From NCBI GenBank assembly GCA_965217895.1, contig CBDCJV010000002.1, forward strand, positions 4,416,001-4,480,000: a stretch of 64,000 nt of DNA, written 5' to 3'. Position 1 is the first letter of the stretch. Every line of letters begins with the position of its first letter. A program made the translations under genes and the position numbers. Below are positions 61,412 through 64,000 of the stretch, in pieces. The notes beneath the pieces were generated by a model, which was not told where the DNA came from, made no database searches, and worked only from the letters and a program-made list of their open reading frames with translations. Source of the DNA: Waterburya sp. Its GTDB lineage: Bacteria > Cyanobacteriota > Cyanobacteriia > Cyanobacteriales > Xenococcaceae.

Positions 61412-61484
61412 GCCAGGATAGCTCAGGTGGTAGAGCAGAGGACTGAAAATCCTCGTGTCGGCAGTTCAAGTCTGCCTCCCGGCA
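61412..61484 (+). tRNA. trnF: tRNA-Phe(GAA)
   Basis: Cloverleaf with GAGGA-CTGAAAA-TCCTC anticodon arm and GGCAG-TTCAAGT-CTGCC T arm; CCA not encoded. Confidence 0.97.
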
Positions 61485-61486
61485 TT

Positions 61487-61610
61487 TGTACATTCAATAA
61501 TTAAGTGTCGTTGTTCACACATTGTTGTCGTTATTAACAATTTAATGTCGCAAACTAACAAATTGTTGTGGTGAAGTAATAAATCAAACTGTTCACATAA
61601 TAATTGTCGC
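61487..61610 (+). repeat. Tn7-like left end with TnsB-binding repeats
   Basis: TGTACA terminus; TGTCG-ending boxes at 61510, 61530, 61550, degenerate 61570, distal 61609. Confidence 0.9.
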
Positions 61611-61811
61611 AATTAGAGCTTTAAAGATATTGTCTGTTAAGGTGATTTCCAGCAAACATTATACCCACAAGAAAGCAACAGTATTCTGAAGTTGACGGAT
61701 GCAAGTGGGTATGGTCTTTCTTGGAAATCACCTAAGACGGGTATTCTTTCTACGTACTTTGTTTATATTATCTTTATTAGCCTAATAGTGAAATAACATT
61801 AGCTAGAGAGG

Positions 61812-61843
61812 TTTTCAGTCCTCTGCTCCTTTCAACCCTTCCC
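61812..61843 (-). CRISPR. Delocalized homing crRNA: truncated repeat plus 17-nt spacer
   Basis: GGGAAGGGTTGAAAG then GAGCAGAGGACTGAAAA, identical to tRNA-Phe 61433-61449. Confidence 0.93.
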
Positions 61844-61912
61844 AAAGGCTAATATTGTAGTGATTGAATTATATTTGATGCTAATTATAGTTATATCTCA
61901 AAAAAGTTTAAG

Positions 61913-62115
61913 TTTTTAAACTCTTACGCTTAAGAAAGATCAAAGCAAGCAATACAAAAGTAAATAAAATTAGTAAAGCGACTAGAGTAATTGGTTGCTC
62001 ATATCTCTTTCAAACCCTCCCACTTCGGGAAGGTCAAAGCAACTATGGGGGCATTTGTATTACAGACCCAGATTAAACCTTTCAAACCCTCCCACTTCGG
62101 GAAGGTCAAAGCAAC
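61913..62115 (-). CRISPR. Mini CRISPR array
   Basis: 37-nt repeat GTTGCTTTGACCTTCCCGAAGTGGGAGGGTTTGAAAG at 62079-62115 and 62007-62043, 35-nt spacer; degenerate copy at 61913-61949 (26/37). Confidence 0.9.
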
Positions 62116-62324
62116 ACTACCCGTCAAATCTCCTGTCGAACCATGCTTTCAATTTAAATTCTGCCAAAGGTCAAATATCTTCAATTTGGCAAACATAAAA
62201 TTACTGCATGATAAAGGTTTAATTTAGTTTATCTTCGCTACAACCTTTGAATGACAAGAGTTTTAAATATTTGTCGAACCTCTCAGGGATTTCGTCCGCG
62301 CTTAGGTTCAACAAAAAATAATTT

Positions 62325-62650
62325 GGGAAGGATTCCTCCGATGAAGGAGGTGATTCAGTAACTACCACTCCAGTAATCTGTATCCCGATTTTGGGACTAG
62401 TCTCAAGCTGTTCCTCATCTTTAAGACATACTTCTTATTGCTGGGAGCGCACCTGACCGTTAATATAGAGTTACGAGATTCTACATTAAGGCACTTTCCT
62501 ATCTACATTAGCGAGAACTAGAGATAGCAGCTTCAGAAGCGGGTACCTACCAGGGTCAGAAAGAAAAATTGTCTTCCGACAATCAAACTAACCCTATTTT
62601 TCGGCGGTGCAGAGGACTTATTCATAAGACATAAACCGCGACGCTATTAT
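62325..62650 (-). ncRNA. Cas12k tracrRNA
   Basis: Conserved blocks AATAGCG, GGGTTAGTTTGA, CTTTCTGACCCTGGTAG, AGGTGCGCTCCCAGCAATAAG, TACTGAATCACC; 3' AATCCTTCCC pairs with the repeat; ends approximate. Confidence 0.9.
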
Positions 62651-62694
62651 TGTTATTCTATTGTCAAGGTTCGATTGAAGACATTAATTATTAT

Positions 62695-64000
62695 TTAGAC
62701 AGCTTTTTCAAGTCGAGAATTATAAGCAATGATCGCAATATTTTTGGCTTGTTCTTGCTTGCTTCCACCTAAAGGCTGTCGCGATTTTTCTATGGGAATC
62801 CTTACAATACTGGCTTTTTGACTTATAAAGTCTGTCAAACGACCGTAGCTCCAATTATGGACATTAACTCGATATTGTTTAGCATATTTTTTTTGACCTT
62901 CTTTATAGCCTAAGATTCTCTTTTCTGCTCTGGCTTGAACTTCGCTTTGGGTAATTTCTCGAATCTGACTAACTTCGGGCAGAACAATACTGCTAACGTG
63001 AAAAGATCGAGCAAGTTCTACAATGGCATCGGCAAATAATCGATCTATATGTTTACCTAAATTTGACTCTCCAAAGTTACTAGGGGAATTTCGCTTCTGT
63101 GCTTTATGACGTTTAATAGATAGCCTTTGTTTTTCTTGTCTTTGACGATTCAGCAACTTATAATTTTTGCCCAACAATTGTTTTGCACTACGATAAGTTA
63201 AGACTCGACCGCTAATTACATCAACTACCGCTACTGTAGTAGGGTTTTCCAAACCTAAAGATACTCCCAGAATAATTGATGGATTTTCTTGGTATAAATC
63301 TTCATGAGGTCGATCTGGAAGATTTTGTAAGTTAGCTAATTGAGTCTGTTTTCTCTTAATATGCTTTTGTTGTTCCGAATCAAGATCGCCTTTTTCTTGA
63401 GTTTGAGCGATTGCTTTTTTTGAGCTATTAGTTTTCTGCTCTGCTATTAATACGGTACCTTCTTTTGACCATAATCTAGTATCTATTGAACATTGAAGGT
63501 AAAGTTTGTGATTATTCCAAGGCTGCTCTTTACTTAGTCGTGTTGTTAGTTGTCTATAACTATGAAGCATAGATAATGCTAGATTATAGTCTCGATCGAG
63601 AAACAGCAAAAGACAAGCACGACTAATCGTTTTCTTACTTTTATGTCGCTTTTGTTTTCCTTCTCTCCATAAAATTCGTCCAGATCTTAGACTAAAAAGT
63701 GCGCTAGATAATTCACTATCTCTAAGTCCGTCCTTTTTGTCTTGCTTACTTTTCTCTTTGAGTTTTTGGTCTTCTAAAAAACGCCGAAACCAATCTAACT
63801 GTCTAGTATCACAACGAATCTCAAACCTATGTTTGCCTAAACCATTAAACTGAACGGACAAATTTCCTTGCTCGTCTCCTAGCCAAGTTAAATCAGTGTT
63901 ACTTTCATAAGCTATGGGATAAGGAACAGCAAAAGATTTTCTTAAAAGGTTATCCTGCAAAGATCGAGCTTCAATGTTGCCTTCAGGTGCGTAATTATCG
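62695..64000 (-). CDS. cas12k: Cas12k effector, 5' part outside the window
   Basis: PYPIAYESNTDLTW, QLDWFRRFLEDQ, DTRLWS, inactive RuvC GVSLG and IVLP, VHNWSYGRL; frame open to window edge. Confidence 0.95.
   Translation of the reverse strand, partial: DNYAPEGNIEARSLQDNLLRKSFAVPYPIAYESNTDLTWLGDEQGNLSVQFNGLGKHRFEIRCDTRQLDWFRRFLEDQKLKEKSKQDKKDGLRDSELSSALFSLRSGRILWREGKQKRHKSKKTISRACLLLFLDRDYNLALSMLHSYRQLTTRLSKEQPWNNHKLYLQCSIDTRLWSKEGTVLIAEQKTNSSKKAIAQTQEKGDLDSEQQKHIKRKQTQLANLQNLPDRPHEDLYQENPSIILGVSLGLENPTTVAVVDVISGRVLTYRSAKQLLGKNYKLLNRQRQEKQRLSIKRHKAQKRNSPSNFGESNLGKHIDRLFADAIVELARSFHVSSIVLPEVSQIREITQSEVQARAEKRILGYKEGQKKYAKQYRVNVHNWSYGRLTDFISQKASIVRIPIEKSRQPLGGSKQEQAKNIAIIAYNSRLEKAV

Follow-up and report, generated by a model that had tools for sequence, protein, structure and literature searches.

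A CRISPR-associated transposon of type V-K homed to tRNA-Phe in Waterburya sp. encloses a type I-D system and the only cas1 of its genome

Closest described systems

CRISPR-associated transposons (CASTs) of type V-K that belong to the V1 group, such as ShCAST and AnCAST (bioRxiv 2021.02.06.429022; PMC9938897), are described in the accessible portions of these sources with a GTN PAM, a 37-nt repeat and the order tRNA, left end (LE), truncated repeat with 17-nt spacer, array, tracrRNA and cas12k, followed on the far side of cas12k by cargo, tniQ/tnsC/tnsB and the right end (RE). We identified an element with all of these features in Waterburya sp. It differs from the V1 descriptions in that it carries cas1, cas2 and cas4 with a full type I-D system, its Cas12k has an insertion of ~40 aa, its tracrRNA region is ~100 nt longer, an HTH-like gene co-oriented with cas12k is found in place of a divergent CvkR or Arc gene, and the target duplication is absent.

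The V-K_V2 group, as far as the accessible text of PMC12416283 describes it, resembles this element in a PAM-LE distance of 54 nt and in a lengthened tracrRNA, part of the added length lying between P5 and P7. However, the V2 anti-repeat, repeat 3' end and Arc_2 are missing here, TnsC has 288 aa (~306 aa in V2), the predicted tracrRNA has ~330 nt (~450 nt in V2), and the PAM-LE distance varies between 54 and 65 nt within the clade of this element. Membership in V2 was rejected on TnsC, tracrRNA length, Arc_2, anti-repeat and repeat end, in spite of the 54 nt; the V2 anti-repeat and repeat-end motifs were also found in 0 of 31 other loci by a scan that had no positive control for either.

Reports exist of type I-D systems in CASTs of another kind. 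CyCAST is a cyanobacterial Tn7-like element with a complete I-D system, including Cas1, Cas2 and Cas4, and is located at a tRNA gene (PMC10293859, PMC11656645, accessible portions). It has TnsAB together with TniQ and TnsD and relies on the I-D Cascade for targeting, whereas in the Waterburya element Cas12k is the predicted targeting component and I-D is a second system. An adaptation module (cas1-cas4 and cas2) likewise lies inside a Geminocystis Tn7-like element, but that element is related to I-B CASTs and the V-K CASTs of its host are at other loci (PMC8649781); in the accessible part of the same survey (Benler 2021), complete CRISPR cargo is infrequent and no I-D is listed. Hsieh and Peters 2021 (bioRxiv 2021.02.06.429022) put forward the idea that V-K arrays obtain spacers by means of I-D adaptation. 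The accessible texts of PMC9881144 and PMC11406308 repeat this as a suggestion, the latter "in trans", and in 2024 a review still gave it that status. Hu 2024 (PMC11300857) reports co-occurrence as well as the use of I-D repeat crRNAs.

Target site, homing guide and left junction

The window is a stretch of 64,000 nucleotides (G000:C2:4416001-4480000) of the Waterburya sp. genome G000 (5.29 Mb, completeness 99.9%). Coordinates above 64000 keep the window numbering, and adding 4,416,000 gives the position on C2. The CAST has a total length of 30,779 bp; its left end is in the window and the matching right end closes at 92265. It was compared with same-clade elements of relatives, the cargo-free V-K elements of G014 and G035 (the latter assembly 86% complete) and those of G030 and G056, which have Cas1 cargo. 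The left side contains:

61412-61484, + strand: intact tRNA-Phe(GAA), the attachment-site gene (ARAGORN, Rfam)
61430-61432, + strand: GTA PAM, followed by the 17-nt protospacer 61433-61449 (sequence match)
61487-61615, + strand: left end, TGTACA and three repeats resembling TnsB sites (motif search), left flank GCATT
61812-61845, - strand: delocalized homing unit, truncated repeat and 17-nt spacer

The preliminary description of this DNA proposed a type V-K CAST homed to tRNA-Phe, and its reading of the junction proved accurate. The minus-strand 17-mer at 61812-61828, which follows a truncated repeat ending in GAAAG, is identical to tRNA-Phe positions 61433-61449, GTA directly precedes the protospacer, and TGTACA begins at 61487, 54 nt past the PAM and 2 nt past the tRNA, which stays intact. 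The guide match, together with the Cas12k score, the tns genes and the right end given below, supports the assignment. Exact 17-nt matches within the window were expected by chance 6e-6 times, so the identity of guide and target is not a chance event. Genome-wide, 21,327 GAAA[G/C] sites were counted and a tRNA 17-mer came next at 3 of them, two being the 5' ends of tRNA-Ala genes and the remaining one the tRNA-Phe homing unit. An Rfam scan found no RNA other than this tRNA.

Homing to tRNA genes by V-K CASTs is already known, and the anatomy here is the published norm: a truncated repeat with a 17-nt spacer, a target with a GTN PAM, and a distance of 54 nt within the 46–82 nt published for V-K CASTs (PMC9938897, accessible part). 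Within the clade, distances of 54, 59 and 60 nt at tRNA-Phe, 65 nt at tRNA-Ser and 58 nt at tRNA-Lys were obtained, with GTA as PAM throughout (5 of 7 elements tried). The tRNA-Phe homing unit (repeat tail and spacer) also occurs at 11 other GTDB loci in at least two Cas12k clades; PAM and end could be read at 7 of the 11, with distances of 59–96 nt, and stacked ends were present at 5 of the 11 (flanks judged by eye), these counts not being independent of ours because the loci partly overlap with the relatives' elements. Neither a tRNA-Phe target nor this spacer was found in the Ziemann 2025 supplement (128 systems). The target was not found either in the literature searched for Cas12k and tRNA-Phe, which excludes Saito 2021 and the Hsieh and Peters tables, and we therefore claim no priority for it.

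By analogy with characterised V-K systems, Cas12k with its tracrRNA and the short crRNA would bind the D-loop region of the tRNA without cutting, and TniQ-TnsC-TnsB would place the element just beyond the tRNA 3' end. Contigs from two main sequencing runs, which may represent the source sample, span the left junction with only 29 letters on the tRNA side. In a contig of run X2, six letters are added at the junction of tRNA and left end (61486-61488) and one terminal base is changed; this variant is a related element at 60 nt within the same run. The stretch that separates left end and homing unit contains a 29-nt inverted repeat (83%; 61640-61733).

Cas12k, its array and the predicted tracrRNA

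62007-62115, - strand: CRISPR array of Cas12k, with one 35-nt spacer and two 37-nt repeats of identical sequence
62116-62320, - strand: leader of the Cas12k array, with a 38-nt motif at 62272-62309
62325-62650, - strand: predicted tracrRNA, ~330 nt, approximate ends inferred, TTGACA at 62667
62695-64770, - strand: cas12k, 691 aa (NF038191 profile); the 3' part, 62695-64000, is in the window and the start lies 770 nt beyond it
88690-88827 (L002:7690-7827), + strand: orphan tracr-like piece, convergent with tniQ

The remainder of cas12k was found past the window edge, with the frame intact. Against NF038191 (cut-off 150) the protein reaches 827 bits; it matches ShCas12k structures with an E of 3e-182 and, in a tree of 32 proteins, groups with V1 proteins and not outside Cas12k. 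Six Cas12k proteins of the clade form one group with support 100, sister to the V1 proteins, and share the ~40-aa insertion. The element had also been called distinct; this holds at the subclade level only, for a clade whose Cas12k has ~690 aa and the ~40-aa insertion and whose tracrRNA region is extended by ~100 nt. In the alignment, S504 and P598 fall on S and P in the RuvC of ShCas12k, at what we take to be the positions of the replaced catalytic residues, and RuvC is accordingly predicted to be inactivated.

The location of the predicted tracrRNA between cas12k and the array and the 37-nt repeats ending in GAAAG are V-K features. The distance from tracrRNA to leader is 282–285 nt in the clade (6/6) and 170–187 nt in the 4 canonical loci that have both marks. 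The predicted tracrRNA is 92–96% conserved across six clade members (the L013 row being left out of the alignment), and its 3' anti-repeat pairs with the homing repeat. Its 5' part shows a 13-nt likeness to the protospacer, located in a conserved tracr stem.

The orphan tracr-like piece corresponds to the 5' part of the tracrRNA of another clade. Matches to tracr parts (20 loci, 251 genomes) adjoin cas12k wherever the locus has a CAST gene, with G000 as the exception. The piece is probably a remnant and less likely a decoy. A tracr-like copy near tniQ was rejected as a conserved feature, as it is not there in G014, G035 and G056.

A further Cas12k clade, represented by L004, L008, L011, L031 and L032 (~662 aa, ~36% identity), has a far longer region between cas12k and the leader, which suggests another tracrRNA variant. 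Several of its members home to tRNA-Phe too.

A co-oriented gene upstream of cas12k

64884-65099, - strand: 71-aa HTH-like gene, co-oriented with cas12k, with palindromes at 65183 and 65207

A divergent regulator had been expected next to cas12k, but the upstream + strand region contains only ORFs of 25–43 aa. A divergent 58-aa gene was detected in G014, so the check is able to find one. The co-oriented 71-aa gene is present upstream of cas12k in 7 of the 8 clade elements with upstream sequence (G014 is the exception) and absent from all other-clade loci among L015-L044. The protein has no Pfam or NCBIfam match. ESM Atlas features, the one source of its HTH identity, were 0.92 for lambda-repressor-like and 0.91 for HTH_3 at 30% of members, and its structural model (pLDDT 70) matched generic helical bundles only (best Z 5.8, rmsd 2.7, 68 aligned). 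Scored with a matrix derived from five further genomes, the two palindromes rank first and second in the element, and their scores are reached at 2 and 12 sites of the chromosome; no such box was found upstream of tnsB. The modelled protein may be an autoregulated repressor acting via these palindromes.

Transposition genes, right end and origin of the element

88856-91941, - strand: tniQ, tnsC, tnsB
up to 92265: right end with TGTACA terminus, right flank ATAAG
92435-93592, + strand: tyrosine integrase, outside the element

As had been predicted from the window, tniQ/tnsC/tnsB and a right end follow beyond it, 25–28 kb past its edge. DDE-type motifs are present in TnsB and Walker motifs in TnsC. 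The arrangement is that of type V-K: tnsB-tnsC-tniQ lie at the right end, tnsA is absent, and the TGT..ACA ends carry TnsB-site repeats. The predicted 5-bp duplication GCATT was not found; the right flank is ATAAG, so the element is not a clean simple insertion, of which the duplication is a sign (it is not a sign of V-K membership). In other elements, the same check found a duplication in G035 and in the inner element of G305, and none in G049 and the outer element of G305.

Positions 27-73 of tRNA-Phe, without the PAM, are present once more on the opposite strand, 1.93 Mb away (G000:C2:2547187-2549277, L056). After this second copy come 10 nt, then a 36-nt block with 92% identity to the DNA that adjoins our right end on its right side, and then a decayed CAST that has a left end, a homing spacer with one mismatch, and degenerate repeats. 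This CAST belongs to another Cas12k clade, and its 66-aa cas12k end is interrupted by an IS5-like element. Relative to the second tRNA-Phe copy, our element substitutes 8 nt instead of duplicating 5, and either a hybrid of two insertions or a deletion beside an end would explain the lost duplication. The two tRNA-Phe sites with flanking direct repeats look like separated att halves of an integrase island. Pairs of IS982-like or IS5-like elements do not account for the separation, and no breakpoint was located.

The genes of the element also differ in their closest relatives. Identity of tnsB is 89–90% to G014/G035 and 84% to G030/G056, whereas that of cas12k is 80% to G014/G035 and 82–84% to G030/G056. 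Mosaicism fits a tnsB that is closer to the cargo-free elements than to those sharing the cargo. In AU tests, whose groups were chosen with the identity table already known, p was 0.032 for tnsB and 0.094, not significant, for cas12k. From what is read directly in the sequence (the components and the order in which they lie, a guide that matches its target exactly, open frames and a leader motif in common), we consider it probable that this is a tRNA-Phe-homed V-K CAST made mosaic by repeated hits, whose I-D system serves mainly for defence with occasional spacer supply. The tRNA-Phe site would have been struck repeatedly, and the right-end module would derive from another insertion or adjoin a deletion, whereby the duplication was lost.

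The element might instead no longer be mobile, a relic that passed down vertically as a chimera of several insertions and was retained for its defence genes only. The absence of the duplication in G000 and G030, the decayed right end and frameshifted cas12k of G056, and the second decayed CAST behind a tRNA-Phe fragment elsewhere in G000 would all agree with this. We think it unlikely, since in G000 the frames of cas12k, tniQ, tnsC and tnsB are intact and the terminal TGTACA pair and the guide match are perfect. In addition, the junctions of the three carriers differ (54, 59 and 60 nt) and CAST genes are only 80–87% identical to those of G030/G056 while three adjacent host genes are 93% identical, which fits separate arrivals.

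Two further arrangements were observed. Nested and tandem CASTs of two clades are located at tRNA-Pro in G305:C1:3053000-3105000 (L089-L091), and the inner CAST shows a perfect duplication of 5 bp. In G000, a 6-kb block with a transposon end (TGTACA), part of a tRNA and an integrase-like gene occurs twice (99.9%; C2:1-6000 and 3477486-3483489), which may be a contig-start repeat.

Type I-D cargo and the only cas1 of the genome

65329-66285, - strand: WYL-WCX
66831-68927, + strand: cas3'
68924-69473, - strand: yefM-yoeB
70140-71770, - strand: I-D array 1, 23 repeats
72152-80125, + strand: cas10d-csc2-csc1-cas6-cas4-(140 aa)-cas1d-cas2
80327-80949, + strand: I-D array 2, 9 repeats
82154-88340, - strand: pnkp-hen1, Uma2, Clp-N

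The tRNA homing alone is ordinary; the unusual part of the element is its I-D/Cas1 cargo beyond the window. To our knowledge, V-K CASTs are generally stated to be without Cas1-Cas2 adaptation genes. Here, cas4, cas1d and cas2 lie between the ends as part of a canonical I-D set that is complete (cas3', cas10d, csc2, csc1, cas6, cas4, cas1d and cas2, all above NCBIfam cut-offs), with an HD motif in Cas10d and with I-D leaders and arrays. G000 has one cas1, one cas2 and one cas4, all within the element (cas1 by tblastn and HMM), and a simple repeat scan found no CRISPR arrays elsewhere in this genome. Searches of the openly accessible literature turned up no V-K CAST with an I-D adaptation module inside it.

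Among the relatives, G056 has matching I-D cargo between cas12k and tniQ, and in G030 cas4-cas1d-cas2 lie inside a right end with a DevR-type interference module, this module and cas12k being on separate contigs and presumed to pair. Both have a frameshifted cas4. No cas1 match was found in the G014 and G035 genomes, and the Cas1 module is absent from both elements. In the whole order, cas12k was present in 105 of 401 genomes; by hand comparison, covering 150 of 159 cas12k rows and 150 of 613 cas1 rows, cas12k and cas1 were both located in at least 39 genomes and shared one contig in at least 10. No cas1 was within 50 kb on the cargo side of cas12k among the matches listed, a result weakened by draft assemblies. 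A cas1 near cas12k in G016 was rejected as cargo; it is located beyond tnsB, outside the element.

A complete I-D system raises the question whether its Cascade also guides transposition, giving a dual-CRISPR CAST like CyCAST. CyCAST targets via its complete I-D system (PMC10293859), and I-D repeat crRNAs function with ShCAST (PMC11300857), according to the accessible parts of these reports. We regard this as highly improbable here: the fused TnsAB with TniQ and TnsD of I-D CASTs (CyCAST/McCAST) is not found, a single 175-aa TniQ of the V-K type is present with TnsA and TnsD absent, the I-D spacers have no full-length match in the host genome, and the tns proteins are 88–94% identical to those of the cargo-free V-K elements of G014 and G035.

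The pnkp-hen1 RNA repair pair (L002:1154-5187) accompanies the Cas1 module in G000, G030 and G056. Cas4-Cas1d-Cas2 with an I-D-type leader and repeat and a DevR-family Cas7, not Cas10d, were seen in G030:C97 and G058:C130 (L058, L059).

Shared leader motif and spacers

The 38-nt leader motif has exactly 3 copies in 5.29 Mb, before the two I-D arrays and the Cas12k array. Local alignment of the V-K leader with each I-D leader scored 127, compared with shuffle maxima of 84 and 81 (0 of 300 shuffles each). The spacing from motif to first repeat is 194–196 nt in all 6 aligned V-K leaders, from two Cas12k clades, and 184 nt in Cas1d-type leaders (6/6). The two spacings differ by about one helical turn, and judging by these leaders the motif may be helically phased. 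Distal motifs of 202–220-bp I-D leaders raise acquisition (Kieper 2019, PMC6607411, accessible part); the accessible text of bioRxiv 2023.05.26.542337 contains nothing on I-D.

None of the 32 spacer sequences had a full-length target in the G000 genome or in 101 other loci, and no spacers were common to different arrays. An exact 20-nt match of Cas12k spacer 1 to 4 viral loci, identical around the match, was rejected as chance (24/35 overall, CTA flank), and the sequence after the second Cas12k repeat had no viral match. Plasmid and phage collections gave short or repeat-like matches only, so the I-D PAM is not readable.

These data bear on whether the I-D system is pure defence cargo, unlinked to the Cas12k array of an ordinary V-K CAST, the leader likeness reflecting old shared ancestry. 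Tn7-like elements commonly carry defence cargo (PMC8649781, accessible part), the motif occurs also in the cargo-free CASTs of G014 and G035 and thus does not single out an in-cis Cas1, the Cas12k array is short beside the 22 and 8 spacers of the I-D arrays, and the arrays share no spacer and lack full-length matches in the 101 other loci. On the other hand, motif and fixed spacing are conserved in 6/6 V-K leaders across two clades, and G030 keeps Cas4-Cas1d-Cas2 though its interference genes differ (DevR-family Cas7). We give this explanation slightly less than an even chance. In the reading we prefer, defending the host would most likely be the main role of the I-D system, which would only occasionally also furnish the Cas12k array with spacers.

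A stronger version, in which a portable Cas4-Cas1d-Cas2 writes Cas12k spacers via a phased leader and a co-oriented repressor of a fourth type controls cas12k, appears doubtful to us. If true, the element would be a self-programming CAST, independent of the host for new guides. Against supply in cis stand the motif in cargo-free elements, the short Cas12k array (2 repeats in G000, 1 in G056 and 6 in G030; 7 in G014 and 6 in G035), the frameshifted cas4 of relatives and the lack of a spacer target.

The element is a natural test case for the published idea that I-D adaptation supplies V-K arrays. The candidate Cas4-Cas1-Cas2 and the Cas12k leader occur together in it, its two I-D leaders can act as positive controls, and the genome encodes no second cas1, so a matched cross-class adaptation assay is possible. 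The clade further supplies insertion-bearing Cas12k and tracrRNA as a pair, along with what may be a regulator of a new type. With cas1 at 87% identity and spacers unshared, the array-2-type leader (L001:19143-19326) is nearly identical to its G056 counterpart, and the repeat is identical.
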